Shown in pieces: positions 7,364 to 40,000 of a stretch of 40,000 nt of DNA. The position numbers and the translations under genes are program-made. This DNA is from an uncultured Alphaproteobacteria bacterium (GTDB taxonomy: Bacteria; Pseudomonadota; Alphaproteobacteria; Rhizobiales; Beijerinckiaceae): NCBI GenBank assembly GCA_963851175.1, contig CAWKNU010000002.1:308357-348356 (forward strand), read 5' to 3'. The notes beneath the pieces are model-generated. The model worked only from the letters and a program-made list of their open reading frames with translations, did not search any database and was not told the DNA's origin. The first letter of the stretch is position 1, and each line of letters begins with the position of its first letter.

Positions 7364-7558
7364 CAAGGGTTCCTCTGGCTTTGACGATCTGCCGGACCTT
7401 GCGGCGGCAAACGGTGCCGCTCCCAATACCACGCTCGGGGCAAGTTGGTACCCCGTTGCATGCGTCTAGGAGCGGCTTTGGCGTGCAATATGGGCTCGCA
7501 CGGAGGCGCTACGGCGCGCAGGATAGACGATGTCAGGATGCAGGGCTCGTCGCCGCCG

Positions 7559-9367: not shown

Positions 9368-9390
9368 TCTGAGACCTCTGACTGGAGCCA

Positions 9391-9419
9391 CTCTTAGAGC
9401 GTGCCGACCTCAATATCAA
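9391..9419 (-). promoter_or_regulatory. Putative sigma70-type promoter of rSAM paralogue A
   Basis: The minus strand reads TTGATA-N17-TAAGAG. It lies inside a leader that is conserved with the one upstream of paralogue B. Confidence 0.3.
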
Positions 9420-16321: not shown

Positions 16322-16909
16322 CTAGCCCCGCCCGCAGAACATCACGTCGGTCTCGGTGATGATGGCGTCGAGCGGCTGGTCGTGCGGTTCGGTCGGCACG
16401 CTTGCGACCTCCTGGACCGAAAACGCGACCCCGATCGCGAGGACCGGCTTGCGGGTGCGCAGCGCCGCCAGGGTATTGTCGTAGAACCCCGCCCCATAAC
16501 CGAGGCGGAAGCCGCGCCTGTCGAAGGCGGCGAGCGGGACGAACAAAAGATCGGGATCGACCGAAGGAGCGGTGGAAAGCGGTTCGGGGATGCCCCAATT
16601 GCCGGGCGCAACCGGATCGCCCGATCGCCACAGAAGAAACCGCAAGGCGTGGCCGCGCGCGACCGTCACGGGCAGCGCCGTGGCAATGCCGGCCTGCGTC
16701 AGGGCCTGGAAAAGGGGAACCGTATCTGCCTCGTCGCGGATGGGATGGTAGACCGAGACCGTGCTACCTCCACCGGCATGGCGGTGGACGAGGTCCGGGC
16801 CGATCTCGGCGAGTCGTTGGGCGAAGCTCTGCCGCACGCCGGGCGAGACTCTGGCCCGCTGGGCCAGAACATCCTTCCGCAGCGCAGTCTTGTCCGCGGG
16901 AAGATTCAT
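16322..16909 (-). CDS. 5-formyltetrahydrofolate cyclo-ligase
   Basis: The sequence contains ...KTALRKDVLAQR... and ...LFVPLAAFDRRGFRLGYGAGFYD.... The GYG.G.YD motif is typical of the family. ATG is at 16909, and the stop lies 4 nt before the ymdB-like start. Confidence 0.85.
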   Translation of the reverse strand: MNLPADKTALRKDVLAQRARVSPGVRQSFAQRLAEIGPDLVHRHAGGGSTVSVYHPIRDEADTVPLFQALTQAGIATALPVTVARGHALRFLLWRSGDPVAPGNWGIPEPLSTAPSVDPDLLFVPLAAFDRRGFRLGYGAGFYDNTLAALRTRKPVLAIGVAFSVQEVASVPTEPHDQPLDAIITETDVMFCGRG

Positions 16910-16931
16910 CGAGGCAGGACGTCCAGGAAGT

Positions 16932-17128
16932 GCGGAGCCACAGTGGCCGTGGGACATCGATCCCGGGAACCTACAACGTAGGTGGGCGCCATGTGACCAA
17001 GCCCACGAGCGAGGTCAGGGACAGCTCCCTTCAGAATCGATAAGGCCCCGGGAATACAGATCCACACGCACCCCGCAGCCCCGCCCGACCAATGTAGAGC
17101 CGCCCGGCCAAAATTGCCAGAGCCCCGC
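16932..17128 (-). ncRNA. ssrS: Candidate 6S RNA (SsrS)
   Basis: This non-coding gap lies immediately upstream of, and co-directional with, the 5-formyl-THF cyclo-ligase gene, the classic ssrS-ygfA synteny. On the minus strand the 5' arm GCGGGGCTCTGG..TGGCCG pairs with the 3' arm CGGCCA CTGTGGCTCCGC. Inner helices CTACA/TGTAG and GGT-GGGCG/CGCCC-ACC flank a large central region containing a small hairpin, GGGAgctgTCCC. The ends are approximate. Confidence 0.5.
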
Positions 17129-26293: not shown

Positions 26294-26626
26294 ATGCATG
26301 CCGACACCGTCTTGGCGAGATCGATGGCCAGCCTATCGGGGCTGATGGGCTGGAGTCACGGGTTGCAAGTGGCATGGCGCCGCCGCAAGGTCATGGCCGA
26401 ACTCGCCACCCTCGACGATCATCTGCTTCGCGACATGGGAATCACGCGGCAGGACGTCGAATCCGTGCTTGCGGACCCTAGCGAGGGCGATCCAACCTTG
26501 CGCCTCGCCGGACGCGCCCGGGAAGCCCGATGGGGTCGGCGTGCCAGCGCCAGAGAAGAGCGGCGTTGGGCGACGCTGCTCGAAGAGGCGGAAAAGCCAT
26601 CCGCATCCGACCGCCGCGCCGCGTAA
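26294..26626 (+). CDS. DUF1127 domain protein with a C-terminal extension
   Basis: ...WRRRKVMAELATLDDHLLRDMGITRQDVESV... is the DUF1127 motif. The gene is divergent from the LysR gene. ATG at 26294 follows GAGGGA. Confidence 0.7.
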   Translation: MHADTVLARSMASLSGLMGWSHGLQVAWRRRKVMAELATLDDHLLRDMGITRQDVESVLADPSEGDPTLRLAGRAREARWGRRASAREERRWATLLEEAEKPSASDRRAA

Positions 26627-26644
26627 TCAGGCCGTCCAAGAAAG

Positions 26645-28210
26645 CTACCGCAGCCCGCGGAAGACCAGCACGACGGCGATGACCCAGAGCGCCAGAGTCA
26701 GCCAGCGCACGCGCTTGGCCTCGGCGCGGGCCATCGCCTCGATGGTTTCGCCTGACAGGCCGAGACCTTCTTCGGCGGCATCCTCCAGCGCCGAAACGAT
26801 CCGTTCCGCCCTGATCAGAAGCTCCGGCACCGCAAGGCTGGTCCGCGCGAAAGCCATCAGGGTCGAGGCCGCATCGCCGATCTTTCCCGCGGGTCCGAGA
26901 TTGTCCTCGATCCAGCTGCGCACAACCGGCTCGGATGTGGCCCACATGTCGAGCTTGGGATCCAGCGTGCGGCCGACGCCCTCGACCACCACCATGGTCT
27001 TCTGCAGCATCACGAGTTCGGTCCGCGTGCGCATGTCGAACAGCGCCGTGATCTCGAACAGCAGGGTCAGCAGTTTCGCCATCGAGATCTGGTCGGCGGT
27101 GCGCGAGTGGATCGGCTCGCCGATGGCGCGGATCGCCTGTGCGAAGTCCTCGACCCTGTGGGTGTGCGGCACGTAACCGGCCTTGAAATGCACCTCCGCC
27201 ACGCGGCGATAATCGCGCGTGATGAAGCCGTAGAGGATCTCGGCCAAAAAGCGCCGCTCCTTTACGCCGAGGCGCCCCATGATGCCGAAATCCACCGCCG
27301 TCAGCCGCCCCTGGGGATCGACGAAGAGATTGCCCTGGTGCATGTCGGCGTGAAACAGCCCGTCCCGCATGGCATGGCGCAAGAAGGCCTGGATCACGGT
27401 CCGGCCGAGTCGCGGAAGATCGAAGCCGCGCGCCTGCAAGCTGGCCAGGTCCGACAAGGACGTGCCGTCCACCCATTCGAGGGTCAGCACGTCCTTGGCA
27501 GTGAGATCCCAGTCGATAGCCGGCACGTGGAAATCGGGATCCGCGGCGACGTTCTCGGCAAATTCCGATGCCGCCGCGGCCTCGATCCGGAAGTCCATTT
27601 CCATGGTGACGGAACGGGCCAGCGTGTCCACCACCTCGACCAGTTTCAACCGCTTGGCCTGAGGCGACCAGCGTTCCGCGAGGTGCCCGGCGAAATACAT
27701 GTCGGACAGGTCGCGCTTGAAGCGACGTTCGATGCCTGGCCGCATGATCTTGACGGCAACCTCGCCGCCGCCCCGCCTTTCCGTGAGGCGGGCCTTGTGG
27801 ACCTGCGCAATGGAGGCCGCGGCGACCGGTTCGCTGAAGCTCGAGAACGTTTCCGCGATCGGCCGGCCGAACGCCGCCTCGATGGTTTGCACGGCGACGC
27901 TGCGCGGAAACGGCGGCACCCGATCCTGCAGGCTTTCGAGGTCCTTGACGGCCGCCACCCCGACGACATCCGCCCGGGTCGCAAGAAACTGGCCGAGCTT
28001 GACGTAAGAAGGCCCAAGGCGGACCACCGCGGCCACCAGCCCCGAGGTGCCGCTGGTCGCCCGTGGGCGCGCGATGAGCTTCGCCAAGGCGAGCGGCAGA
28101 CGCCCCTCGACCGGTACGGCTCTCGCGTCGACGTCCGAAAAGACGCCTTCACGGGCCAGCACAAAGCCGGCGCGCGCCAGGCGCACGACATGGCCGATGG
28201 TTGCGAACAT
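26645..28210 (-). CDS. ubiB: Ubiquinone biosynthesis protein kinase-like UbiB (ABC1 family)
   Basis: The 521-aa protein contains LGPSYVKLGQFLATRAD, AAASIAQVHKA, VAVKI.RPG, HADMHQGNLFV and C-terminal TM helices. It lies immediately downstream of ubiE. Confidence 0.92.
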   Translation of the reverse strand: MFATIGHVVRLARAGFVLAREGVFSDVDARAVPVEGRLPLALAKLIARPRATSGTSGLVAAVVRLGPSYVKLGQFLATRADVVGVAAVKDLESLQDRVPPFPRSVAVQTIEAAFGRPIAETFSSFSEPVAAASIAQVHKARLTERRGGGEVAVKIMRPGIERRFKRDLSDMYFAGHLAERWSPQAKRLKLVEVVDTLARSVTMEMDFRIEAAAASEFAENVAADPDFHVPAIDWDLTAKDVLTLEWVDGTSLSDLASLQARGFDLPRLGRTVIQAFLRHAMRDGLFHADMHQGNLFVDPQGRLTAVDFGIMGRLGVKERRFLAEILYGFITRDYRRVAEVHFKAGYVPHTHRVEDFAQAIRAIGEPIHSRTADQISMAKLLTLLFEITALFDMRTRTELVMLQKTMVVVEGVGRTLDPKLDMWATSEPVVRSWIEDNLGPAGKIGDAASTLMAFARTSLAVPELLIRAERIVSALEDAAEEGLGLSGETIEAMARAEAKRVRWLTLALWVIAVVLVFRGLR

Positions 28211-28213
28211 CCG

Positions 28214-28987
28214 CTAGAGTTTCCAGGCCGAATGGATCGCCACCACCCCGCCGGTCAGCCGCGTGGCCGAAACCCGCCGGAACCCAGCCTCGGCGATCAT
28301 GTCGGAAAACGTGTCCACGTCCGGGAAGCGCCGGATCGACTCGACGAGATAGCGGTAGGGCTCGCCGTCGCCGGCGATCAGGCGGCCCATGGTCGGAATG
28401 ACGTTGAACGAAAAAGCGTCATAGATCCGGTCGAGAGCCGGCACGTCGACGGCTGAAAATTCCAGGCACAGGAAGTGGCCGCCGCGCTTGAGCGTGCGAT
28501 AGGCTTCGGCCAGGGCCAGCGGTATCCGGGGGACGTTGCGGATGCCGAATGCGATCGTATAGCAATCGTAGGAGCGGTCGGGCAGCGGCAGCGACTCGGC
28601 ATTGCCGGCGACGAAGCGCAACGCGCTCGCCTGTCGCCCGAGGCGGCTCCTGCCGACCCGCAGCATGTCGGGATTGATGTCGAGCACCGTGACCTCGGTG
28701 CGGGCGCCCCCGGCCTTGGCGACCCGGCGGGCCACGTCGCCCGTGCCGCCCGCCACGTCAAGGTGCCGGTAGAGACCGCGGTGCGACGGCTTGACCATCG
28801 AGACCAGCACATCCTTCCAGACGCGATGCAGGCCGCCCGACATCACGTCGTTCATGATATCGTAGCGCTCCGCGACAGTGTGGAACACGTCGTCGACGAG
28901 CCGCTGCTTGGAGTCGAGCGCAACGTCGGTGAAACCGAAATGCGTGGTTTCCGGACCTGGGGATCTGCGAGGAGGCGAGGACGTCAT
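28214..28987 (-). CDS. ubiE: Ubiquinone/menaquinone biosynthesis C-methyltransferase UbiE
   Basis: The sequence contains ...THFGF..V....K...[24 protein letters not shown]...LDVAGGTGD...FGIRNV... Confidence 0.92.
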
Positions 28988-29069
28988 CGGGCCCTTGTGA
29001 AGCTTGGGACCGCCTGGCGCAGAGACCGCCTCGACCCCAATCTAAGATCTGAACGGACGCTTTAGCATC

Positions 29070-29951
29070 ATGCCCGAACTTCCCGAAGTCGAAACCGTGC
29101 GACGCGGCTTGGCCGCAGCCATGACGGGCGCCACCATCCTCGGCGTGCAGCAGAACCGGCCCGACCTGCGGTTTCCCTTTCCGGACGATTTCCCGCAGAG
29201 GCTTCTCGGGCGGCGTATCGAGGCCATCGAGCGACGCGCCAAATATCTGATGATCGGGCTCGACGACGGAACCGTGCTCGCGTCTCACCTCGGCATGACC
29301 GGGTCGTTCCGGATCGAGGCGGACGGTGCCGAAAACGTGCCAGGCGCCTATTACCGCGCCCGCGCTCCTGCAGGACTGCACGACCACGTTCGGTTCGAGC
29401 TCGATAGCGGCATTGTCATAACGTACAGCGACCCCCGTCGCTTCGGCTTCATGGTGCTGGTCCCGCGATCGGAACTCGGAGGGCATCCGCTGTTTCGCGA
29501 CATAGGCGTCGAGCCATTGAGCGCGGATTTCGACGGCGCGGTGCTCGCGACCCTGCTGGCCGGCAAGGGGACGCCGCTCAAGGCCGCGCTTCTCGACCAA
29601 CGGCTGGTCGCCGGACTCGGCAACATCTACGTTTGCGAAGCCCTGCATCGCGCCGGCCTGTCGCCACGGCGAGCCGCCGCCACCCTGGCCCGCAAGGACG
29701 GATCACCGACGGTCCGGGCGATGCGCCTGGCCGCCGCGATCAAGGACGTGTTGCGGGAAGCCGTCGAGGCTGGCGGATCGACGTTGCGAGACTATCGCCA
29801 TGCCGACGGTTCGCTCGGCATGTTTCAGCACGGCTTTCGCGCCTACGACCGCGAGGACCATGCCTGCCAGACGCCGACGTGCCGCGGAACCATTCGCCGC
29901 ATCGTGCAATCCGGCCGTTCGACCTTCTTCTGCGCGGAGTGCCAGCGGTGA
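29070..29951 (+). CDS. mutM: Formamidopyrimidine-DNA glycosylase
   Basis: The sequence starts [14 protein letters not shown], continues with ...[17 protein letters not shown]..., and ends in a C-terminal zinc finger, C..C.....[11 protein letters not shown]. Confidence 0.93.
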
Positions 29952-30023
29952 CACCCTCGCCTGCCGATGCCGGACCGGACCAGCACAGGCCCGGGCCGAG
30001 CATGGCTGGCAGCGGCGTCGCGT

Positions 30024-30590
30024 TCAGTTGCTGACCACGGACTCGATGGCTGCCTGGGTGTGCGAGCCGGAGCCGAATGCCGCCAGGATCTTTTCCCGCA
30101 ACGAGGCCGCGATCTCTTCCTCCACGGTCGCCTGCTGCTCCGCGGCCTGGGCACGGATCTCGCCGGCTTCGGCGCGCGCCTCGGCCGCCTCCAGGCGCTG
30201 TTGCAGCCCCGCGATGCGGGTCTCGCATTCCTGCAATTGGGTCTTCATGGCGGTGGCAAGCCGCTCCCAATCCTTGATGACCCGTTCTGCTGTGTCGGTT
30301 TCGGTCCGCAGGCGTTCGCGCAGCTCTGCCGCATTCGCTTCGAGCTGGTTGCAGCGGGTCTGCAGGACGTCGATCGTATTGGCGGCGCGCGTTACGAGAT
30401 CGAGCGCGACGTCGTTGTCGGCCTCGGTGTCCGCGAGCTGCTCCCGCGGCGGCGCCCGATGATTGCGGTCGCGGTTGCCTCGGGCCGCCATTTCCTTGTC
30501 CAGAAGGCGCGAGCTGAAGCCGGACGCGTTGATCCCGTCATGCTTCCGGATCATCTGCGTGGGCTGCTGACTGTGGTCGGTCAAGCTCAT
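30024..30590 (-). CDS. Coiled-coil protein of unknown function, paralogue 1
   Basis: ATG follows GAGGA. A disordered N-terminus is followed by IDVLQTRCNQLE...WERLATAMKTQLQECETRIAGLQQRLEAAEARAE...REKILAAFGSGSHTQAAIE. It is colinear with the ORFs at 30911 and 31795. Confidence 0.7.
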   Translation of the reverse strand: MSLTDHSQQPTQMIRKHDGINASGFSSRLLDKEMAARGNRDRNHRAPPREQLADTEADNDVALDLVTRAANTIDVLQTRCNQLEANAAELRERLRTETDTAERVIKDWERLATAMKTQLQECETRIAGLQQRLEAAEARAEAGEIRAQAAEQQATVEEEIAASLREKILAAFGSGSHTQAAIESVVSN

Positions 30591-30910
30591 GTTCGTCCTC
30601 AAAGTGGTGTCATTCCGATGTGGACAAACTTAATAAAATATTGACAAAAGGCAATCAGCCTCAGCCCTGTTTGGCACAATGCTCGTAAGCACGGTTAACA
30701 TCGCGCATTAATCGTCAGCTGGCTGCGGTCCGGGTCTATGCTTGCTCGCGGAGAGCTACGGCCGATTTACAACTTATGTAAGGTTAATGCGTTCGGGCTT
30801 GCCGTGCAAAAGTACGGGCTTCTTGCGGGTCAGACCCTGGGAGTGCAGTCGAAACCTTGGCTTTCGTTCCGGCTGCCACGCCATGGTCCGCCGCTCAAGC
30901 AGGTGTCGGT

Positions 30911-31468
30911 TCAGAGGCCGAGGGTGTCGAGGGCGTTTTGGGTGCGGGTCCCGGTCCCGAACGCGGAGACGATCTTGTCGTGGAACCGGGCGGATTGGTC
31001 CGCCTCCTCGGCCGCAAGGTGCTGCAGGGAGTCGAGTTTCTCCTTCAGCTGTTCGGCACGGGCCTCTGCGGCATCGCTGTTCTGCTTCATGGTCGCCAGC
31101 CGCTTCTCGCAATCTTCGAGCTGGGTCTTGGTGGCCCGTGCTAGCCGCTGCCATTCGGCCGCGAGACTTTCGGCGGCCTCCACTTCGAGCCGCGAGCGCT
31201 CGCGAACCTCCCGGGTTTCCAGTTCGAGTTGCCGAACCCGGGCCTGCAAGGCGTCGATGACGTGCGATGCCTTGTCGACCAGTTCCATGGCGGCGGTGAA
31301 ATCGCGTCTGGGACTAGGTGCATGATCGGGCCTGGTGAACACCAGGGCCGGCTCCCGAAGCTTCGGGGCAGCGCCGTTGTCATTGTCCATGGAATAATTC
31401 TTTGGGCTGCCGGCGTCGCCCATCAGTGCGGCCTTGTCGGAGGCGGGCGGATTCTGCACCAAGGTCAC
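30911..31468 (-). CDS. Coiled-coil protein of unknown function, paralogue 2
   Basis: GTG follows GGGAGA. The sequence is ...IDALQARVRQLE...WQRLARATKTQLEDCEKRLATMKQNSDAAEARAE...FHDKIVSAFGTGTRTQNALD. Confidence 0.7.
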   Translation of the reverse strand: MTLVQNPPASDKAALMGDAGSPKNYSMDNDNGAAPKLREPALVFTRPDHAPSPRRDFTAAMELVDKASHVIDALQARVRQLELETREVRERSRLEVEAAESLAAEWQRLARATKTQLEDCEKRLATMKQNSDAAEARAEQLKEKLDSLQHLAAEEADQSARFHDKIVSAFGTGTRTQNALDTLGL

Positions 31469-31735
31469 TGGCTTTCTCCCGACGGATCGCGGCGATCGTC
31501 AAAGCTCGAAAGTTTATTCCAGGCAGCTTGCGTTAAAACGGCGCTAATCGACCGGTGCAGGATTGCGGTTTGCGGCAAGATAATCGGGAATCTCGGTGGT
31601 TGCTGGAGCCGGTTTCAGTCGAAACCACGCCGGTCGGCGCGACCACACCTGGGTAATCCGATGTTGAGGGGTGCCGGTTCCCGCACCGTGGACCGGTCCC
31701 ACAGGCACGCGCGCACGAGCGTCAGCAGGACGGCG

Positions 31736-31751
31736 TTAACCATTTGTTAAC
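31736..31751 (+). promoter_or_regulatory. Perfect CtrA box (TTAA-N7-TTAAC)
   Basis: TTAA ccatttg TTAAC lies at 31736-31751, 44 nt upstream of the ATG of paralogue 3. Confidence 0.5.
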
Positions 31752-31794
31752 CATCCGGGGTCTTTGCTCGCTTGGTGGACGGACGGAGGATTCG

Positions 31795-32403
31795 ATGGCT
31801 TTGCGGCAACAGCTTCAGCGATCGCAAGTGGGGCGCGAGATGGTGGAGCACACTGGATCCTCGCCGAGCAGCCTACCGGTCGGTCCCGACTTTGCCAGCT
31901 TGATGCACAAGGTGGTCCAGCAAACCGGAGCGCCGGCCGAACAGTTGCAGTCGAACAAACCCAGGCGCGACTACGAGACCGCATTCGGGCTTCTCGATCA
32001 GGCTTCGACCGCGCTCGACACCCTGCTGCAGCGCTGTCAGCAACTGGAACAGCAAGTCACCGATGTGACCGAGCGCGCCCAGGCAGAAGCGGCAGCGGCC
32101 GAGGACGTGACATCGCAGTGGCAGAAGCTTGCGACCGCCATGAAGGTGCAGGTCGAGGAATATGAAAAGCGCATGCTCGCCATGAAGCAGCGAGCCGAAG
32201 CGGCCGAGGCCCGCGCCGCGGCGATCCAGAACCGCGCCTTGGCGGCCGAGCAGGCTGCCTCGGAGAAGGAGGATCTCTCCACGAGGTTCCACGACAAGGT
32301 CGTCGCGGCATTCGGCATCGGCTCGCGCGCTCACGGGGTCCTGGAAGCCGTCGCCAAAGGCGCAATTCCGGACGGCCAAGCCGCCAGTTCGGCCGCGGGC
32401 TAA
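31795..32403 (+). CDS. Coiled-coil protein of unknown function, paralogue 3
   Basis: ATG follows GGAGGA. The sequence is ...LDTLLQRCQQLE...WQKLATAMKVQVEEYEKRMLAMKQRAEAAEARAA...FHDKVVAAFGIGSRAHGVLE. Confidence 0.7.
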   Translation: MALRQQLQRSQVGREMVEHTGSSPSSLPVGPDFASLMHKVVQQTGAPAEQLQSNKPRRDYETAFGLLDQASTALDTLLQRCQQLEQQVTDVTERAQAEAAAAEDVTSQWQKLATAMKVQVEEYEKRMLAMKQRAEAAEARAAAIQNRALAAEQAASEKEDLSTRFHDKVVAAFGIGSRAHGVLEAVAKGAIPDGQAASSAAG

Positions 32404-33152
32404 GGGAAGCTCGGGCCTATAGTTTCGGACCTGGATCTCCCGTCCGCGTCCGACGGCTGCGCCTTCACGCGCTCCCCCGCCTCCCCGGCGGATTTGGCCG
32501 CATGGGCTTGTCGATTGATCGCCTGCAGGTTGGGGCCGCCCCAAAACGCCAGCAGGTCGGGCCACGGCAGATGCCGGTGGTCACGCCACACCCGGAACAA
32601 GGGAACGCGGTGGTCAACCTCGGCAGTCTTGAGCAGGCGCTTGCCGGTCAGGACGCATTTGCGGCCTTGGAGCCGCCGCAATAGCCCGATGCGATCGTTC
32701 GGCGCGATCCAGAACTTCCAGGCCGCGACGCAGCAGGCGTGCCAGTTCGCCCTGGCGTTCGGCTTGCCATCGTTCCACAGGTCGCGGTGCCAACCGAATC
32801 TGAACACCGGCTGGCCGCAGATGCAGCAGCGGCCGCGGCCCAATGCTCTGGCTTTTTCCCGAAACGGCGCCGGCGGCGAGCGGAAGGTGCGACCGAGCCC
32901 AGGGTCGGAGCCCCTGGACAGCCTCCAGGTCCAGCCCTGGGGCGTGCCGGACTGACGCGCGAGCGCGCGGGCGAGACGATCTGCGCGGAGGGGATGGGCC
33001 GCCCAATAGCTTTCGACGGCGAGGCGCGGCAGCGGCGGTATCAGGGCCCGCGCCAGGGCATGCACTCTGACCTGCACCGGGAAGATGGGAGGCATCGCCT
33101 TCAGCAACCGTGCCCGCGAGAGCGCGTTGCGGTCGTCCCTCCATTGCGACAT
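32400..33152 (-). CDS. HNH endonuclease family protein
   Basis: The C-terminal half reads CCICGQ...H..CC...C.LTGKRL..AEVDHRVPL...NLQAINRQAHAAK, giving Cys pairs and an H-N-H arrangement. The N-terminal ~110 aa are unassigned. Its stop overlaps the stop of the convergent gene (CTAA). Confidence 0.7.
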   Translation of the reverse strand: MSQWRDDRNALSRARLLKAMPPIFPVQVRVHALARALIPPLPRLAVESYWAAHPLRADRLARALARQSGTPQGWTWRLSRGSDPGLGRTFRSPPAPFREKARALGRGRCCICGQPVFRFGWHRDLWNDGKPNARANWHACCVAAWKFWIAPNDRIGLLRRLQGRKCVLTGKRLLKTAEVDHRVPLFRVWRDHRHLPWPDLLAFWGGPNLQAINRQAHAAKSAGEAGERVKAQPSDADGRSRSETIGPSFP

Positions 33153-33247
33153 CGATTCGGCCTGCTCCAGGGGGGCGAGGTGTAATGGAGCTTCAGTCGC
33201 GGTTCAAGCAATCGCGCAGCGTCGGAGGAGGGTTCCGGCACAGCCCA

Positions 33248-35650
33248 TCAAGCGGCTTCGGCGTCCACCGGCTTGGCGAAGGAGAACCTCAGCTTGTTGG
33301 CAGGCTGGGGCCGATCGAACAGATAGCCCTGGACCTGGTCGCAACCGACGGACCGCAATTGTGCGAACTGGTCGGCCGTCTCGACGCCTTCGGCGGTGGT
33401 GGTCATGCCGAGGCTCGAGCCGAGTGCCGCGATCGATCCGACGATCGTTATGCAGTCCGGACGAGTAGAGAGTTCGCGCACGAACGACTGGTCGATCTTG
33501 ATCTTGTCGAACGGGAAGCTTCGAAGATAGCTCAACGAGGAATAGCCGGTACCGAAGTCGTCCATGGCGATGCGGATGCCGAGCGTGCGCAGCTGATGCA
33601 AGGTCATCAGCGTTGCATCGCTTTCGCTGAGCAGGACCGTTTCGGTGATTTCCAGTTCGAGCCGCGAAGCGGAAAGTCCGGTGGCCGTCAAGGCGCGTTG
33701 TACGGCCTCGACCAGATTGTTGGTCTTGAACTGGGCGGGCGAGAGATTGACCGCGACCGTGATCCTGCCGGGCCAGGTCGCGGCTTCAGCACAGGCCTGC
33801 CGCAGCACCCATTCGCCGAGTGCGGAAATCAGCCCGATGTCTTCCGCAACGGGAATGAATTCAGCCGGAGACACCATCCCGCGAGCCGGGTGGTGCCAGC
33901 GCAGGAGGGCCTCGAACCCGGAGACCTGCAGTGTTCGGACGTCGACGATCGGCTGGAAATAGAGTTGGAATTCCCCGTGCGCCATGGCCTTGCGCAGGTC
34001 CACCTCGAGGGCTCGCCGGGCCTTGATCTCGAGGTCCATGTCGGCTTCGAAGAAGCGGAAGCCGCGGCGCCCCTCGGCCTTGGCCCGGTAGAGTGCCAGA
34101 TCCGCGTTCTTCATCAGATCGTCAGCCGCGCAGTCGTTCATCGGACCCATGACGATACCGATGCTGGCGCTGATGACCACTTCCGAACCGTCGAGGACGT
34201 AAGGGCGACTGAGGCATTCGATGAGGCGTGTCGCCATGGCGCTGCTGCTCTCGGGCCCCTCGACATCGACCTGCAGAATAGCGAATTCGTCGCCCCCGAG
34301 CCGGGCCACGACGTCCCCCTCGCGTGCGCTCTCCTTGATGCGTGTTCCGACCTCCCTGAGGAGCGCGTCGCCGATGGGGTGGCCCAGGGAATCGTTCACG
34401 TCCTTGAACCCGTCGAGATCGAGGCAAAGGACGCCGAGACGGCTTCCGTGCCGCTCCGCCCGGGCGAGGGCGGATTTGAGCTGCTCGTGGAAATAGCGGC
34501 GATTGACGAGGCCGGTCAGCCCATCGTGGTGGGCCAGATAGGTGATCTGCGCCTCCGCTTGGCGCCGCTGGGTAATGTCCTCGTAGGTGGCCACCCAGCC
34601 GCCGTCCGGCATGGACTGATGTGCCACGGAGATCGTGCGCGTATCCTCGAAGTCCTGCACGAAGCTGACGAAGGATTTGTCTCCGCGAAGGCCGCCCTGC
34701 CGGGCGTAGATTTCCCTGAGATGGGTGCTGGCGCTGAGATTGATCAGATCGGGGAGCAGCATTCCTGGCATGGGGGCGAAATCGAGCGCAAACAACTCGG
34801 CAAAACGCTGGTTGTAGACCACCAGCTGTTCCGCCGCGTCCACCATGCACAGGGCCTGCGACATGTTGTTGAGCGCGGCGTCGAACCGCTTGTTCTGCGT
34901 GCCGAGTTCGCGGTCGCGACGCTGCAGGATCTCGTTGCGCGAGTGCAGTTCGGAATTCACCGATTGGACTTCGGAATGGGCGAGCTCGAGATCGGTCGAG
35001 GTCCGCCTGAGGTCCTTGGTCAGCGTATCGAGGTGGGAGCGTGCGCGTTCGAGAAGCTGGTTGTGCCAACCCAGCAGGCCGACCAGGAAGAATCCGCAGA
35101 GCAGCAGCCCGGCCACCATGACCGAAAAGGTCCAGTGCAGCCGAAGCAGTTCGGCCTGGTCCTGCGCCACCTTGTCGCCGCTGTAGGTGTGCGCGGCCGA
35201 CGCGATGTAGGCGAGCTTGCTGTCCAGCGGCGCGAGGATCTCGAGAGCCCTGACGATCGAACCCGGGCGGTCCAGCTCACCGACCAGGGCCTGGACCTGC
35301 TTGATGGCTCGCGACAGAAACTGGATCGTCGCCAGGATCTCGCGATCATGGGATGCGAAATCCTTGAATTCACCATGGTCGATGAGTTCGAGGCGGTTGG
35401 ACAGAATATCCAGCCTGAGCTGAACCTCGTCGCTGTCGATTTTCGAACCTGGAATGCCGGCAGCGGCGATCCGCTGCTCCAGCCGTACGAATTCCGCGCC
35501 GGCCTGACTGGCCAGCCAGGTTATGTCGTAGCGCGAAACGCGACGGAGGGCATCATGACGCTCGGCGGTCAACGTGGAAACGTAAATGGCGGCAACGGCT
35601 AAGCCGCACATGACCATGAACAGAATGATTTTTCCGGCTCGAAGCGACAC
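33248..35650 (-). CDS. Transmembrane sensor with a periplasmic domain, coiled coil, PAS, GGDEF and EAL domains (DcpA-like dual diguanylate cyclase/phosphodiesterase)
   Basis: The 800-aa protein has TM1 (IILFMVMCGLAVAAIYV), a ~150-aa periplasmic segment and TM2 (FSVMVAGLLLCGFFLVGLLGW). It has an I-site REGD five residues before an intact GGDEF, then EALLRW, DDFGTGYSS and EGVE. GTG follows GGAGG. Confidence 0.92.
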   Translation of the reverse strand: MSLRAGKIILFMVMCGLAVAAIYVSTLTAERHDALRRVSRYDITWLASQAGAEFVRLEQRIAAAGIPGSKIDSDEVQLRLDILSNRLELIDHGEFKDFASHDREILATIQFLSRAIKQVQALVGELDRPGSIVRALEILAPLDSKLAYIASAAHTYSGDKVAQDQAELLRLHWTFSVMVAGLLLCGFFLVGLLGWHNQLLERARSHLDTLTKDLRRTSTDLELAHSEVQSVNSELHSRNEILQRRDRELGTQNKRFDAALNNMSQALCMVDAAEQLVVYNQRFAELFALDFAPMPGMLLPDLINLSASTHLREIYARQGGLRGDKSFVSFVQDFEDTRTISVAHQSMPDGGWVATYEDITQRRQAEAQITYLAHHDGLTGLVNRRYFHEQLKSALARAERHGSRLGVLCLDLDGFKDVNDSLGHPIGDALLREVGTRIKESAREGDVVARLGGDEFAILQVDVEGPESSSAMATRLIECLSRPYVLDGSEVVISASIGIVMGPMNDCAADDLMKNADLALYRAKAEGRRGFRFFEADMDLEIKARRALEVDLRKAMAHGEFQLYFQPIVDVRTLQVSGFEALLRWHHPARGMVSPAEFIPVAEDIGLISALGEWVLRQACAEAATWPGRITVAVNLSPAQFKTNNLVEAVQRALTATGLSASRLELEITETVLLSESDATLMTLHQLRTLGIRIAMDDFGTGYSSLSYLRSFPFDKIKIDQSFVRELSTRPDCITIVGSIAALGSSLGMTTTAEGVETADQFAQLRSVGCDQVQGYLFDRPQPANKLRFSFAKPVDAEAA

Positions 35651-35713
35651 CGAACCTCCGCGGGCCCACCACCCCTCTCGGCTTGATGGCGCGACGATAA
35701 AGAGGAATTCTTA

Positions 35714-36211
35714 TCAAACCATGGAGTAGATCGCGGAATTCCCGCCATGCTCCTTCACCTCGACGCTTTCCGTCCAGGCGCGCCCTTCGCTCAACTGGCG
35801 AATGATTGCATCTACTTTGTCGTACACATATTTCGCGGTCGCCTCGCAGCCTACCGACGGCATGATGCGGATGTCCACGAGACCCTCGCGCGCGAGCGCC
35901 TCGAAGCGCTCCCGCTCGGGATCGTCAACAGCCACGATCATGGTGTGGTCGAACATCTCGTGCAGCCAAGCCTTCACGGGCTTCAAGGCTCCGAAGTCGA
36001 AGCACCAATTGCATTCGTCCAGCTGATGCGAGCAGAACACGAACCTGAACGCCAGCGCGTAGCCGTGAATCAGGCTGCAGTGGGAATGCTTGGCCCGCCA
36101 TTGCCGGAAGCAGCAGGACAGGCCTTCGTTGTGGTCGTAGGTCTTGGTCGACCGATAGATGCCGGCGGTTCGCACCGGCTGAAAAGGCTGAACGCCGATC
36201 TGATGGTTCAA
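35714..36211 (-). CDS. 6-pyruvoyl-tetrahydropterin synthase / QueD family protein
   Basis: The sequence is ...YRSTKTYDHNEGLSCCFRQWRAKHSHCSLIHGYALAFRFVF....DECNWCFDFGALKPVKAWLHEMFDHT.... It has the PTPS/QueD fold pattern with a CxxxHG motif. The start is uncertain: TTG at 36211 follows GAGG, and 36238 and 36175 are alternatives. The listed 226-aa ORF overlaps folE and is over-extended. Confidence 0.8.
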   Translation of the reverse strand: MNHQIGVQPFQPVRTAGIYRSTKTYDHNEGLSCCFRQWRAKHSHCSLIHGYALAFRFVFCSHQLDECNWCFDFGALKPVKAWLHEMFDHTMIVAVDDPERERFEALAREGLVDIRIMPSVGCEATAKYVYDKVDAIIRQLSEGRAWTESVEVKEHGGNSAIYSMV

Positions 36212-36252
36212 GACCGCCTCGCTGCCAAGTGCTCGCACGGGTTGTGCCGGGG

Positions 36253-36924
36253 TCAGTCCGCGTTGCGGTCCAGGATGGCGCATTCCTGCAAGAACTCGGA
36301 CCTGAGTTCCTTGTCTGTGAGCATGTCGCCGTAATAGGAGCTGTTGACCATCCGGCTGGAGCGCGGTGCCAAGACGCCGCGATGGGTCTTGCACATGTGC
36401 ACCGCACTGATCCGCACCGCGAGCCCGCGCGGTTCCGTCGTATCGACGATGAAGCGCTCGATCTGCTTGACCAGTTCTTCCTGGATCTGCAAGCGAGAGG
36501 CGAAATATTCGACGATCCGGTCGTATTTCGAAAGGCCGATGATCCGGCCATTGGCTGCCGGCAGGATTCCAATCGTCGCATGTCCGTAGATGGGCATGAG
36601 ATGGTGGGCACAGGTGGACCGCAAGGCGATGGGTCCAGTGACTATGAGCTGGTCGTAGTGCTCGACGTTCTCGAAATCGGTAATGCGCGGCGGCGACGTA
36701 AAGCGCCCTCGCATGGTTTCCTCGACGAACATCTTCGCCACGCGGGCCGGTGTGTCGCGCGTATTATGGTCGCTGCGATGGTCGATGCAGAGGATGTCGA
36801 ACAGTTCCTCGATTTTTCGGGCCGCGGCCTCTTTCATGGCTTCGCGATCGGCTTCGTTCATGAACCCGCGCACGGCCTCGTTGCACAGGCTTGGGACCAC
36901 CATCGGATTTACATGCTTGTTCAC
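36253..36924 (-). CDS. folE: GTP cyclohydrolase I (FolE type)
   Basis: The sequence contains ...NTRDTPARVAKMF..., ...STCAHHLMPIYG...IGILP...IIGLSKY.RIVEYFA.RLQIQEEL... and ...AVHMCKTHRGV.... Confidence 0.9.
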   Translation of the reverse strand: MNKHVNPMVVPSLCNEAVRGFMNEADREAMKEAAARKIEELFDILCIDHRSDHNTRDTPARVAKMFVEETMRGRFTSPPRITDFENVEHYDQLIVTGPIALRSTCAHHLMPIYGHATIGILPAANGRIIGLSKYDRIVEYFASRLQIQEELVKQIERFIVDTTEPRGLAVRISAVHMCKTHRGVLAPRSSRMVNSSYYGDMLTDKELRSEFLQECAILDRNAD

Positions 36925-37010
36925 GGGCGCAACCCTAATCGGACCCTGCGGGCGATAACCTGGGTTATATATGAATCGCGCGTTAGTGAAAGGAGTTAAT
37001 TTAACCTGAA

Positions 37011-37087
37011 ATGGTTAATTGGCATTAACGACCCGCCTCGGTTGCGCCCTAACATTTGCGATGTTTTGTCGCAATCATGGTTAATTC
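37011..37087. repeat. Direct repeat of ATGGTTAATT (x2) flanking the inverted repeat TTGCGA-N7-TCGCAA in the folE/pruR-like divergent intergenic region
   Basis: atggttaatt occurs at 37011-37020 and 37078-37087. ttgcga (37056-37061) pairs with tcgcaa (37069-37074). Additional TTAA/TTAAC elements lie at 36996-37029. Confidence 0.5.
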
Positions 37088-37222
37088 TTCCGTAGTTGTG
37101 TCATCCTAGCACAAAACGCGCCGCTAAACGCTTCGAGCGGGGCGCTTCATTAACGATATTGTATTCACGCGCCTTTAAGCGATTTCTGGCATGGAGGTGC
37201 GTCGCAACTGGAGTTCGGGCAC

Positions 37223-37747
37223 ATGATGGCCAACAAAACACGTTCGTGGATCGGTGGTGTGGCCCTCGCGTGCGCCGGTATCCTGGCCGCCGTATCGGCC
37301 CAGGCAGGTTCACTCGGCACGCCCAAGGATAAGCCGATCCTGACGATCTCAGGGGACATCACCGAAACCAACAGCCCCGATGGCGCCCAATTCGACCGCG
37401 GCATGCTCGAAGCGCTGGGCATGGTGACGGTCGAAACCACAACGCCTTGGTACAAGGGACCCATGAAGTTCGAGGGCGTCCCGATGGACAAGCTGATGGC
37501 CGATGTCGGGGCCAAGGGTGGCCATGTGGTCGCCTATGCGCTCAACGACTACAGCACCGAAATCCCGATGGAAGACTTCACCAAGCACCACACGATTTTG
37601 GCCCTGAAGCGGAACGGCGAATACATGCCGGTACGCGACAAGGGTCCGCTGTTCGTCATCTACCCTTATGACAGCGACCCCGAACTCAAGAGCCAAACCT
37701 ACTACAGCCGCTCCGCATGGCAGGTGGCTCGCCTGGTCGTCAAGTAA
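37223..37747 (+). CDS. Periplasmic SUOX-fold (oxidoreductase molybdopterin-binding domain-like) protein, PruR-like candidate pterin-binding protein
   Basis: The Sec signal is MMANKTRSWIGGVALACAGILAAVSAQA. The ~145-aa mature domain reads ...FDRGMLEALG...TTTPWYKGPMKFEGVPMDKLM...YALNDYSTEIPMEDF...ALKRNGEYMPVRDKGPLFVIYPYD..., resembling the small molybdopterin-binding-domain family. The mature region has no cysteine, so it has no Mo-ligating Cys. Confidence 0.7.
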   Translation: MMANKTRSWIGGVALACAGILAAVSAQAGSLGTPKDKPILTISGDITETNSPDGAQFDRGMLEALGMVTVETTTPWYKGPMKFEGVPMDKLMADVGAKGGHVVAYALNDYSTEIPMEDFTKHHTILALKRNGEYMPVRDKGPLFVIYPYDSDPELKSQTYYSRSAWQVARLVVK

Positions 37748-37755
37748 CCGGCCCA

Positions 37756-37775
37756 GGGGCGGTTTGCGCCGCCCC
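37756..37775. terminator. Possible bidirectional hairpin between convergent genes
   Basis: ggggcgg-tttgcg-ccgcccc forms a hairpin. There is no clear T tract on either side. Confidence 0.3.
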
Positions 37776-37810
37776 CGATACATTCTGCCAACGCTCAACT
37801 GCGGGGCGCA

Positions 37811-40000
37811 CTATATTGCCGCCTCGACAGCCTCAATGAGCGCTGTGGCCGGCGCGCCGTCGAGCCCCGGAACCTCGATCTCATCCCCCTCCTCCGCACC
37901 GGCCAGAACTTGGCCGAGAGGCGTTGTCAGCGACACCGATCCACGCGCTTCCCCGGCGCCGTCCTGCGCAATGCGGATCGTCAAGCGCTTGCGATCGGCA
38001 AACAGTAGCGCGACCCGATCTCCGACCTTGATGCCGGTGCCGGCATGGGGCGCGAGGTCGGCGCCGTTGATGCTCTCGGGCGCGGGCAGTTCCTTGTCCC
38101 CCGGAGGTGTTGGCGGGTCGGATGTTGCCGTGACGATACGATGTTCGGTCAACCGGTACGCCGCCCTGGCCCCTGCCGTGCCGGTCAGCGGCTCGACATC
38201 CTGCTTTTTCAGCGCGTCGACCAGGTCCGTCATGACGCCATCCGGATCGCGATAGAAGCTCGACGCGAAGCAGCGCCAGAACCGCCAGCCGACCCGCTCC
38301 AGTATCCGCTGCCGGCGCATGTCCTCGCGCCATTGCTGCGGGCCATGGAAGCTGTCCCCGTCGCATTCGATCGCGAGACGGCGGCCCTCGGCACCCTCGA
38401 CGACAAGGTCGATGCGAAAGCCCTCGGCGCCGACCTGCGGCTCGACCCGGTAGCCCAGTTCCAGCAGGCGGCGCATCACGTCCCGCTCGAACTCCGAGTC
38501 GCAGGCTGCATAAAGGTCCTCGGCTTGGCTGGGCCGCGTCGGCATCGGATCGGCGAAATGGGCGATCAGCTTTGCCTTCAGGTCCTTGGGATTGAGATCC
38601 TCGAGCGGCACCGAGCGCACCAGCACGAGCCGATCCCGGGCCCGCGACGCGGCGACGTTGAACCTCTGCTCGTAGCGCAGCATCGTCAGCGTCGTGCGGC
38701 GCTTGCGATCGGCCACCATGGACAGGAACACGATGTCGCGTTCGTTGCCCTGGAAGGTGGCGCTGTCGCCGCACAGGATCGCATGGCGCTGCATCATCTC
38801 TTCGCCGAAGCGGTCCGACAACATGACCCGGACCAGTTCCGCCTGCTCGGCGCCGATCAGCGAGATCACGCCGATGGAACGGTGCCGGTGCGCTGGGTTC
38901 TCGAGCAGCGTGGCGATCTCGTCGACGATGACCTGGGCCTCGGGACGGTTGATCTTGCGGCCGCCGTCCCGGATGCCGTGCGGCACGAAGATATCGACGA
39001 GCGGCGGGTCGAGTCGCTCCTGCGCAGAGGGGATGCGCAGCGGGATCAGCTTCTCGGGGTAGAACTGCATGGAGAAGCGGATGATCGGCTCGACGCAGCG
39101 GAAATGCTCCTTCAGCATCAGCCGACTGTCGGGGAACACGGCCCGCATGAGATCGTACAGGCTCTCGCCCGGCTCCAGCAGGCTGCGGTACGGCAGATCC
39201 CGCAGGTAATGGTGACGCAATTGTTCGATCTTGGTCTGTGTCACGAAAGGCGCGGTCGGGCTGACCTGCCTGTCATCCCCGACGGCCAGGATCTTGCGGC
39301 CGCGCAGCAGTGCCGGGATTTCGGTCACGTCCGATTGGGAGGCCTCATCGAGGATCACGAGATCGAAGGCGGCGAGATCGGACGGTAATTGTTCTGCGAC
39401 GCGCCAGGTCGGCATGATCCAGCACGGCACGGCATCGTAGCATCGGGCCATGGCGTCGCGGGCGGCGCGGCGGTGGTGACCGGCGCCTTTGCCCGTCCCC
39501 TTACCGAGCCGGCCGAGCGCTCGAACATATTCGACAAGCGCGGATTTGACACGCGGCGATAGCCGGCGCTCCAGGGCATGAAAGGCACGTTCACGCACGA
39601 GTTCGACGAAGAGCTTGCGTCCGCGCCGGTCCGCCGCGTCGCGCTCGCGGGCGAGCGCCAGCAGGTCCTCGCGACCGTCCATGCGAGCGAGATGCCCCTC
39701 TGCGGCACCGCTATCCCATGCGGCGCGCCAGTCATCCGGAACGAGCGCGTCGCCATCCGGGTCAGGCGGCACGGTCCTCAGCCGGTGCGCCCAGTCCGGC
39801 GCGCCCGCCGCGGCCACCCGCGCGCATAGGGCCGCGAGTGCTTGGAGGTGACCGGCCACGGCGCGCAGTTTCGCGATACGCGCCTCGATGCCGCTCCAAA
39901 GCGCCTCGATCCTGGCCGTGTCGACCCCCTCTCGGCCTATTATCTCGGCGAAGAACTGGCGCGCCATCGTCGAGGTACGGTCGTCGCCCACGAACAGCGC
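37811..40000 (-). CDS. Superfamily 1 (Upf1/DNA2-like, AAA_11/AAA_12-type) helicase fused to a DUF559/Vsr-like nuclease-fold domain and a GreA/GreB-C-terminal-like domain; N-terminus outside the window
   Basis: The helicase motifs are DLVILDEASQ (II), ILAVGDDRQ (III), SATFQGNERDIVFLS (V) and RFNVAASRARDRLVLV (VI). EFERDVMRRLLELGYRVEPQVGAEGFRIDLVV....LAIECDGDSFHG......D..R...LERVGWRFWR is a DUF559-type pattern. The tail is KVGDRVALLF.....LTIRI......G.VSLTTPLGQVLAGAEEGDEIEV. The reading frame stays open to base 40000. Confidence 0.85.
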   Translation of the reverse strand, partial: ALFVGDDRTSTMARQFFAEIIGREGVDTARIEALWSGIEARIAKLRAVAGHLQALAALCARVAAAGAPDWAHRLRTVPPDPDGDALVPDDWRAAWDSGAAEGHLARMDGREDLLALARERDAADRRGRKLFVELVRERAFHALERRLSPRVKSALVEYVRALGRLGKGTGKGAGHHRRAARDAMARCYDAVPCWIMPTWRVAEQLPSDLAAFDLVILDEASQSDVTEIPALLRGRKILAVGDDRQVSPTAPFVTQTKIEQLRHHYLRDLPYRSLLEPGESLYDLMRAVFPDSRLMLKEHFRCVEPIIRFSMQFYPEKLIPLRIPSAQERLDPPLVDIFVPHGIRDGGRKINRPEAQVIVDEIATLLENPAHRHRSIGVISLIGAEQAELVRVMLSDRFGEEMMQRHAILCGDSATFQGNERDIVFLSMVADRKRRTTLTMLRYEQRFNVAASRARDRLVLVRSVPLEDLNPKDLKAKLIAHFADPMPTRPSQAEDLYAACDSEFERDVMRRLLELGYRVEPQVGAEGFRIDLVVEGAEGRRLAIECDGDSFHGPQQWREDMRRQRILERVGWRFWRCFASSFYRDPDGVMTDLVDALKKQDVEPLTGTAGARAAYRLTEHRIVTATSDPPTPPGDKELPAPESINGADLAPHAGTGIKVGDRVALLFADRKRLTIRIAQDGAGEARGSVSLTTPLGQVLAGAEEGDEIEVPGLDGAPATALIEAVEAAI

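Follow-up and report, generated by a model that had tools for sequence, protein, structure and literature searches.

Linkage of a PruR–DcpA-type sensor pair to atypical pterin-synthesis genes in Alphaproteobacteria

Could a bacterial pterin sensor travel with the genes that make its ligand? We examined a stretch of 40,000 nucleotides (hereafter, the window) from an uncultured alphaproteobacterium of the Beijerinckiaceae (assembly GCA_963851175.1, contig CAWKNU010000002.1, forward-strand positions 308,357 to 348,356). Towards its right-hand end the genes for PruR, a periplasmic pterin-binding protein, and for DcpA, a dual-domain enzyme in the turnover of cyclic di-GMP (c-di-GMP), a messenger for biofilm formation, are found together with genes for two pterin enzymes, a paralog of GTP cyclohydrolase I and an atypical member of COG0720. 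The PruR–DcpA system as such is known; the novelty lies in the apparent re-wired operon of the window and in the conserved attachment, to that system, of a pterin-synthesis cassette that is dedicated and atypical. The interpretation that we favour, and consider reasonably probable, is that the locus encodes a PruR–DcpA switch from pterin to c-di-GMP, together with a ligand supply of its own.

Results

The pruR gene occupies positions 37223..37747 of the forward strand and encodes a 174-aa protein matching Pfam Oxidored_molyb (PF00174, 2.3e-09). A divergent control region of 298 bp (36925..37222) separates it from folE, the first of three genes on the reverse strand. This gene (36253..36924) encodes a 223-aa GTP cyclohydrolase I paralog (Pfam GTP_cyclohydroI, PF01227, 1.5e-43), which we call FolE(CAHH) after its signature. 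It is followed by the gene for a 165-aa, T-fold, QueD-like enzyme of COG0720 (35714..36211; Pfam PTPS, 2.6e-13), the Cx3HGY enzyme of what follows, and then by a dcpA-type gene (33248..35650) whose 800-aa product matches Pfam PAS_7, GGDEF (4e-47) and EAL (4e-77). The start of the COG0720 gene is most likely the TTG at 36211, which has GAGG at 36220-36217, five bases before it, and which yields the 165 aa found in most homologs. From the folE stop to the COG0720 start there are 41 nt, and from the COG0720 stop to the dcpA start 63 nt. Such gaps are consistent with a single transcript, and the three genes appear to form an operon. A promoter and terminator scan of the window returned no promoters, and terminator-like sites were no more frequent than expected from shuffled sequence. 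The closest relatives of the module in a scan of PruR loci, one genome per species, are in metagenome-assembled genomes of Hyphomicrobiales and in Lichenihabitans/Lichenibacterium.

An initial annotation of the window, prepared from the nucleotide sequence, had placed four open reading frames (ORFs) at these same positions, and had described the region between folE and pruR as 298 bp long and AT-richer than its surroundings; its GC content is indeed 48-55%, against about 62% nearby.

Is the 174-aa protein a true PruR? The family is defined by a length of about 170 aa, a signal peptide, a mature part without cysteine, a PW motif whose Trp replaces the Mo-ligating Cys, and the residues Asn102, Tyr104 and Trp160, which stack on or hydrogen-bond to the pterin ring (PMC11194511). 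Compared with the crystal sequence of Agrobacterium tumefaciens PruR (7KOS/7KOU), the window protein is 67% identical over 147 ungapped residues (phmmer E 1.3e-62); the other PruR structures (Klebsiella, Vibrio) are matched at E 1.5e-54 (7RKB) and 1.4e-22 (7KP2). Its residues P75-W76, N108, Y110 and W166 correspond to P69-W70, N102, Y104 and W160 of the Agrobacterium protein. A signal peptide of about residues 1-28 can be read directly from the sequence, with a basic n-region, a hydrophobic core and the ending …SAQA/G. The sole cysteine, C17, lies within it, leaving the mature part Cys-free. The three pocket residues N108, Y110 and W166 are kept in all of the PruRs compared, 33 of 33 from loci with a linked pterin gene and 34 of 34 from loci without one, save for two Tyr-to-Phe exchanges and one alignment gap at W166. 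We conclude that the protein is a PruR ortholog with all of the pterin-binding residues, and we predict that it binds a pterin. The initial annotation had proposed a PruR-like protein of the molybdopterin-binding type with no cysteine in its mature part, and the PF00174 match, the PW motif, the pocket residues and the position of C17 bear this out. Some PruR residues, position 77 among them, discriminate linked from unlinked loci. They were not used, because the comparison is phylogenetically confounded: the unlinked set is dominated by 16 Agrobacterium-group species, from which come 17 of the 34 sequences in those columns.

The partner of PruR is as readily identified. In the 800-aa protein, hydropathy places hydrophobic segments at about residues 1-27 and 175-197, enclosing a loop of about 145 aa, in keeping with the 138-150 aa of DcpA-type regulators. 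Within this periplasmic loop an alignment of 10 sequences puts W45x7E53 in register with W40…E48 of the Agrobacterium DcpA, the WX7E motif. The periplasmic domain shares 29-32% identity with that of Agrobacterium DcpA (E 1e-27 to 1e-30), and the GGDEF-EAL part 50%. The R443xxD I-site, G452GDEF, E580AL, DDFGTG, KID and QGY are all intact. We conclude that this is a DcpA-type regulator, as had been suggested; the loop, I-site, GGDEF and EAL motifs of the initial description stand, and to them must be added a cytoplasmic PAS_7 domain (residues 260-366) that it did not mention. In the window pruR is not immediately upstream of dcpA. It is on the opposite strand, with the FolE(CAHH) and COG0720 genes between the two. 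Most of the related linked loci retain the canonical pruR>dcpA order.

What of the two enzymes? FolE proteins carry the family signature C-E-H-H (PROSITE pattern). In the window protein this reads S-T-C-A-H-H; H-M-C and the other zinc and catalytic residues are intact. CAHH is present in all 24 of the FolE copies found near pruR or beside a Cx3HGY gene. With 138-144 bits, FolE(CAHH) reaches none of the four NCBIfam cut-offs for FolE (162-202), and it is 38-41% identical to a canonical alphaproteobacterial FolE; NCBI records name the copies merely 'GTP cyclohydrolase I'. One Microvirga strain holds three copies, on three plasmids. FolE(CAHH) is thus a distinct and specialised paralog, in a separate CAHH clade, and its predicted activity is that of a GTP cyclohydrolase.

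On the three Microvirga plasmids, a gene for a PACE-family efflux transporter directly follows that for FolE(CAHH) (L157:7729-8178, L158:7730-8179 and L160:7729-8163). A Cys-less QueD-like gene comes next on two of the three, and pMVF16-2 has a dcpA-type gene besides. We regard the transporter as a candidate pterin exporter. Variant FolE proteins are also found further afield: phage-like metagenome contigs (L103, L109, L110, L122, L123, L130, L131, L139, L140 and L144) pair Cx3HGY QueD-like genes with a C-S-H-H FolE. Co-travel of Cx3HGY enzymes with non-canonical FolE may thus be a more general pattern.

The COG0720 enzyme has the signature S32-C-C-F-R-Q-W … S-H-C45-x3-H49-G-Y51, with D88-H89, E123 and E154. 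It belongs to a subfamily of 1,217 representatives (at 50% clustering), in which S-H-C-x3-H-G-Y is present in 270 of 271 sampled members and C45, the Asp-His dyad D88-H89 and the two Glu residues are invariant. Its AlphaFold2 model is a T-fold (mean predicted local distance difference test score, pLDDT, 95.4). The nearest structures by Foldseek are 3JYG (from a Wolinella protein that is uncharacterised), E. coli QueD, QueD2 and PTPS, none of which exceeds 20% identity. QueD2 is the top profile match among solved structures (E 4.6e-15); against the QueD equivalog the enzyme scores 31 bits, for a cut-off of 89. The motif of PTPS-II is Cx5HGH (PMC5041015), which this enzyme, with its Cx3 spacing and terminal Tyr, does not have. 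The initial label of 'PTPS-like' is accordingly right as to the Pfam family, and is made more precise by calling the protein a Cx3HGY-type, QueD-like enzyme. A network study of 2017 had described a CxxxHGY cluster that has FolE among its neighbours, and had labelled it 'PTPS-II-like' solely from its gene neighbourhood; the study mentioned no PF00174 or GGDEF neighbours of that cluster (PMC5445326).

Neighbour joining groups the pruR-linked Cx3HGY proteins in a single clade, separate from the clades of que-linked and of phage proteins; most of the pruR-linked proteins have extra cysteines (SCC…, WCxDFG). Relatives at 40-57% identity fill the QueD slot of folE-queD-queE-queC clusters in Rhizobium phage RHph_N17 (108 phage records overall), in Aminobacter plasmid pSR3 and in many metagenome contigs. 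The product at this step of that pathway is 6-carboxy-5,6,7,8-tetrahydropterin (PMC6884629). Because these relatives occupy the QueD slot, and because the Cys-to-His spacing (Cx3) of the window enzyme is that of QueD and not of PTPS-II, we regard 6-carboxy-tetrahydropterin as the most likely single product, with about an even chance of being the right one; the alternative is 6-pyruvoyl-tetrahydropterin or another 6-substituted tetrahydropterin. Some copies are in fact labelled 6-carboxytetrahydropterin synthase by NCBI.

Members of the Cx3HGY family occur in other settings as well. At L069 (R. rhizogenes pC6.5b) and L071 (a Streptomyces californicus plasmid) they accompany condensation or carrier proteins of non-ribosomal peptide synthetase (NRPS) type, reductases of SDR (short-chain dehydrogenase/reductase) type, a HAD hydrolase and a folE of canonical or variant form; these look like pepteridine-like NRPS-pteridine clusters. 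The nearest relatives of the enzyme away from pruR include L085 and L090, which are phage-like and without Pfam matches, and L095, a stand-alone chromosomal gene. The repABC plasmid pSR3 of Aminobacter sp. SR38 (L070, 1593-8235) carries a pruR-dcpA pair and, 1.8 kb away, a queE-(Cx3HGY)-queC cluster, flanked by an acyl-homoserine-lactone synthase gene and LuxR-type genes; this Cx3HGY copy is from the que-linked clade, not the pruR-linked one.

How general is the linkage? The PruR scan gave 65 loci, which were searched with the window proteins and with hidden Markov models (HMMs) for two COG0720 types, the second of which is described below. A linked pterin gene, that is, FolE(CAHH) and/or an atypical COG0720 enzyme, was found at 35 of the 65. 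The Cx3HGY enzyme is accompanied by FolE(CAHH) at 13 loci and is the only linked enzyme at 4; the Cys-less QueD-like protein is accompanied by FolE(CAHH) at 6 loci and is the only one at 11; at 1 locus, at a contig end, there is FolE(CAHH) only. The genes are arranged in at least seven orders (divergent, co-directional and downstream arrangements included), which span two orders of Alphaproteobacteria. Writing X for the COG0720 gene, we find folE>X>dcpA divergent from pruR, as in the window; folE>X divergent from pruR>dcpA; folE>X>pruR>dcpA; X>folE>pruR>dcpA; X divergent from pruR and either dcpA or the gene for a DTB-type kinase; and pruR>dcpA>X. Among named taxa the carriers are Lichenihabitans/Lichenibacterium, Microvirga, several Rhizobiaceae, Nitratireductor and Acetobacteraceae of the Roseomonas type, and among metagenome-assembled genomes Beijerinckiaceae, Xanthobacteraceae and Rhodospirillales. 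Lichenibacterium ramalinae, Microvirga puerhi, Rhizobium oryzicola and Pararhizobium sp. IMCC3301 are carriers that can be cultivated.

Sampling from the side of the enzyme leads to the same place: PruR, DcpA and FolE(CAHH) are present at 8 of the 10 loci with enough flanking sequence. Genome homologs in Microvirga puerhi, Pararhizobium sp. and Siccirubricoccus sp. have all three adjacent (3 of 3), as do the same-clade metagenome contigs with enough flank (5 of 5). An all-against-all ORF comparison of 28 linked loci revealed no further recurrent neighbour family, be it a reductase, FolX, a phosphatase or a transporter, and neither queE nor queC is adjacent at the window or at any pruR-linked locus. 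Since 35 of the 65 independent PruR loci have the linkage, and have it in several gene orders, we conclude that the adjacency exceeds chance. That the sensor pair and the pterin enzymes form one genetic unit had been proposed from the window by itself, and the comparative survey, on the sensor side and on the enzyme side, supports it.

Two variants deserve mention. Lichenibacterium ramalinae, the genome that contains locus L005, has a second module (L156, QYBC01000001.1, 7001-10649) of the order folE(CAHH)>Cx3HGY>dcpA, with no pruR within 7 kb; in its DcpA a Leu replaces the Trp of WX7E. It may be a PruR-independent or a trans-acting variant. Contigs labelled 'MAG: Janthinobacterium lividum' (L006; proteins P0298 and P0351) carry Lichenibacterium-like modules with 75-81% identity to the window proteins, and the labels probably reflect mis-binning.

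The second COG0720 type is a subfamily of about 120 aa without the catalytic cysteine, which adjoins pruR-dcpA in 17 of the 65 species (L008-L010, L028, L035, L038, L043, L045, L047 and L049-L056; for example L052:9370-9729, minus strand). It is close to the QueD of E. coli and of P. aeruginosa (E about 1e-22) and scores under the QueD equivalog cut-off. A six-residue deletion removes the loop that bears Cys27, the catalytic residue of QueD. FolE(CAHH) is also present at 6 of these 17 loci.

Does the region between folE and pruR reveal how the module is controlled? Five of the six GTTAAT/ATTAAC hexamers of the window lie within it (36995-37154), among them those of the palindrome GTTAAT-TGGC-ATTAAC (37014-37029). 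Only the closest relative, L001, has this array in common with the window. CtrA-type half sites, TTAACCAT (read on the forward strand as ATGGTTAA), occur at 37011-37018 and 37077-37084; single TTAACCAT or full sites lie upstream of pruR in L001, L007, L011 and L067, few loci overall. The sites may point to cell-cycle control, a suggestion confounded by the AT-rich composition of the intergenic region. Elsewhere in the window, a full TTAA-N7-TTAAC site and two more half sites stand at the start of a coiled-coil gene, 31744-32403 (sites at 31735-31754). Across 17 homologous divergent intergenic regions there is no common block that would suggest a conserved operator. An Rfam scan of the whole window returned 6S RNA only, and a permissive scan of 36850-37300 returned nothing credible. 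With no folate riboswitch upstream in these scans, we regard a housekeeping folE under riboswitch control as unlikely.

Discussion

If the locus is a switch with its own ligand supply, how might it work? COG0720 enzymes such as PTPS and QueD carry dihydroneopterin triphosphate to the tetrahydro level without a separate reductase. FolE(CAHH) would convert GTP to 7,8-dihydroneopterin triphosphate, and the Cx3HGY enzyme would convert this in a single step to a 6-substituted 5,6,7,8-tetrahydropterin. A pteridine reductase of the PruA type would not be needed, because COG0720 enzymes reach the tetrahydro level unaided and the product would already be in the form that PruR prefers; no PruA-like reductase is encoded in the 40-kb window. 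The pterin would then pass by some route to the periplasm, where PruR would hold it between Y110 and W166. Liganded PruR would finally dock on the WX7E loop of DcpA and presumably shift the enzyme, in one direction or the other, between synthesis and breakdown of c-di-GMP.

Several observations weigh against this reading. Thirty of the PruR loci have no linked pterin gene; of these, 16 are from closely related Agrobacterium-group species, and 8 are Rhodobacterales or Sphaerotilus PruRs without a recognisable DcpA-type partner. FolE(CAHH) does not have the conserved Glu beside the zinc-binding Cys. In the Cx3HGY enzyme a Tyr replaces the latter His of the zinc motif HGH, and a Phe aligns with the N-terminal zinc His; the enzyme departs from all of the characterised COG0720 classes, and its activity and product are for this reason not readable from homology. 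Two members of its own clade are found without pruR, one in the NRPS/SDR cluster of R. rhizogenes pC6.5b and one on a Neorhizobium replicon, alone with FolE(CAHH). The window encodes no exporter, so that the description of the module as self-contained, in the initial annotation, was too strong, although enzymes, receptor and output are linked as it stated. Finally, the genetics of A. tumefaciens indicate a PruA-dependent monapterin derivative, which is a different pterin branch (PMC11194511).

Might the cassette instead make a pterin for some other use, as a cofactor, an antioxidant or a secondary metabolite, with PruR–DcpA merely monitoring the pool? The two same-clade occurrences without pruR speak for this, the one being in an NRPS/SDR/folE cluster, and so do 40%-identical genes in Streptomyces NRPS clusters; these clusters resemble the pepteridine cluster (PMC5384830), and pterins are also excreted for reasons other than signalling (PMC13259868). 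On the other hand, pruR and dcpA are the sole recurrent neighbours in some 30 loci, with no consumer enzyme, hydroxylase, NRPS or reductase among them, and in loci of the window type dcpA is apparently co-transcribed with both enzymes. We consider this explanation unlikely. Nor does it seem at all probable that the linked COG0720 proteins modify, inactivate or sequester the ligand, as a means of turnover or as a cytoplasmic carrier, while FolE(CAHH) feeds a different step. Both types are, it is true, altered at catalytic or metal positions (HGY for HGH in the one, the Cys27 loop lost in the other), and E. coli QueD takes substrates besides dihydroneopterin triphosphate (PMC9894224). However, the Cx3HGY type retains the catalytic Cys, the Asp-His dyad and the conserved Glu, its relatives fill the QueD slot in phage pathways that require a working enzyme, and the frequent pairing with a GTP cyclohydrolase favours a biosynthesis that starts from GTP.

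There is finally the explanation that folE and the COG0720 gene are ordinary folate or queuosine genes, and that they stand beside pruR through inherited synteny, which would mean nothing for their function. The work of Cx3HGY relatives in preQ0 clusters, and the synthase name that NCBI gives to some copies, would agree with it. But inherited synteny accords poorly with at least seven gene orders in two orders of Alphaproteobacteria, or with the recruitment of two unrelated COG0720 subtypes to the same position. Housekeeping genes would hardly be expected to form a separate CAHH clade under the equivalog cut-offs, with three plasmid copies in one strain, or to lack both an adjacent queE/queC and a folate riboswitch. 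We regard this explanation as very improbable.

The favoured reading, a switch with its own ligand supply, can be extended, and the extension is a good deal more speculative; we would sooner expect it to fail in some part than to hold as a whole. The PruR–DcpA/DTB switch would then be one half of a producer-receptor system across many Alphaproteobacteria. Its ligand would be a 6-carboxy- or 6-acyl-tetrahydropterin, rather than the PruA-derived tetrahydromonapterin, made from GTP by a dedicated, reductase-independent, two-step route of FolE(CAHH) and either atypical COG0720 protein; the Cx3HGY and the Cys-less proteins would be new functional classes of COG0720. Were this so, the occupancy of PruR would report the redox or oxygen state of the periplasm, or the density of cells, because the compound would be self-made, exported and easily oxidised.

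How does the window compare with the PruA–PruR–DcpA system of A. tumefaciens (PMC4488946, PMC11194511, PMC13259868)? The two have in common a periplasmic, Cys-less PruR of the SUOX fold with the PW motif and the N/Y/W pocket, and a DcpA with two transmembrane segments, a WX7E loop and GGDEF-EAL domains. They differ in layout: pruR>dcpA is bicistronic in Agrobacterium, whereas the window has a divergent pruR and places dcpA after the folE(CAHH) and COG0720 genes. The Agrobacterium DcpA is without the PAS_7 domain that the window DcpA has. In Agrobacterium folE (Atu1749) and pruA are encoded elsewhere, and the 16 Agrobacterium-group loci of the survey have no linked pterin gene; in the window the supply genes are adjacent, and they point to a tetrahydropterin of the QueD/PTPS type where Agrobacterium has a PruA-reduced monapterin.

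Other known systems share single elements with the module. The FolE-QueD-QueE-QueC clusters of phages and plasmids, which make preQ0 and other 7-deazaguanines (PMC6884629), have Cx3HGY relatives at the QueD position, and C-S-H-H FolE variants too. The pruR-linked copies, by contrast, have no queE, queC or dpdA nearby and form a separate clade paired with the CAHH FolE. QueD2, a low-zinc QueD paralog with Cx4HGH (7V0F, PMC9894224), and QueD itself (Cx3HGH, 4NTM) have the same T-fold, catalytic Cys and Asp-His dyad, and the Cys-His spacing of the window enzyme is as in QueD; they differ from it in having HGH for HGY and the N-terminal zinc His for Phe. The pepteridine clusters of Photorhabdus (plu2792-2799, PMC5384830) are likewise a specialised pterin pathway with its own folE and COG0720 gene. 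Their product is an NRPS product, whereas in the window the companions are a periplasmic receptor and a c-di-GMP enzyme, with no reductase, kinase or condensation enzyme.

Has the linkage been seen before? The primary papers and the review treat pruR-dcpA as a two-gene operon; folE appears there only as the pathway's generic opening step (PMC4488946, PMC11194511, PMC13259868). Full-text searches, whose coverage stops short of subscription-only papers, turned up no description of PruR linked with GTP cyclohydrolase, QueD, PTPS or tetrahydropterin synthase, in agreement with the initial annotation, whose author was not aware of any. Two reasons probably explain why the linkage escaped notice: most of the sampled lineages have it but that of the model organism does not, and the published survey sought adjacent pruR-dcpA pairs.

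The linkage matters for what it suggests the PruR signal could be. According to a review of June 2026, the in-vivo ligand of PruR is unidentified, some carriers of PruR–DcpA have no pteridine reductase, and no pterin exporter is known (PMC13259868). The PruR–DcpA pathway is kept in thousands of Proteobacteria, pathogens included. The linked genes open both the identity of the ligand and the reductase-less supply of pterin to direct experiment, and offer a candidate for the exit of the pterin from the cell. For two COG0720 subfamilies that are uncharacterised, and for a FolE paralog lumped by annotation pipelines with the housekeeping enzymes, they also provide a likely role.

Other features of the window

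Outside the module the window is ordinary chromosome, which encodes subunits of ATP synthase F0, ubiE/ubiB, a 6S RNA, a 5-formyltetrahydrofolate cyclo-ligase and a xanthine-dehydrogenase-type Mo enzyme. On the strand of dcpA, and 96 bp downstream of it, begins an ORF of 250 aa rich in cysteine (32400-33152, minus strand). Its product contains CCICG…HACC…DHRVPL and has an HNH-like look, but no Pfam or NCBIfam match, nor is it conserved elsewhere among the linked loci. Converging on pruR from the other side is a gene for a large AAA_11/AAA_12 helicase (37811-39991, minus strand) that runs past the end of the window (1612 aa in L155); it is fused with an MTES_1575/DUF559 nuclease and a GreA-like C-terminus, and its best NCBIfam matches, far under the cut-offs, are the anti-phage proteins ProA and Hhe.

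Locus L155 (ENA contig_9613) covers the window from 26304 to 40000. It encodes an identical FolE, yet is 96.3% identical overall with 64 gap openings, and its gene calls are broken for dcpA, ubiE and ubiB; the window dcpA is intact. Either L155 is an assembly with many errors or it comes from another strain.

To the left of the module are three coiled-coil paralogs of about 190-220 aa (30024-30602, minus; 30911-31468, minus; 31744-32403, plus), which have a common C-terminal motif, …FHDK[IV]V[AS]AFG.G.R…, and weak, sub-threshold Pfam coiled-coil matches. The 6S RNA (78 bits; 16931-17084, minus) lies directly upstream of the 5-formyltetrahydrofolate cyclo-ligase gene (16322-16957), the classic ssrS-ygfA arrangement. 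Three radical-SAM paralogs of about 600 aa (7559-9391, minus; 9546-11363, minus; 12501-14312, plus) have a gene for a DUF3891 protein (11562-12362, plus) among them, and this cluster adjoins the gene for a molybdopterin-dependent subunit of the aldehyde-oxidase/xanthine-dehydrogenase type (5045-7432).

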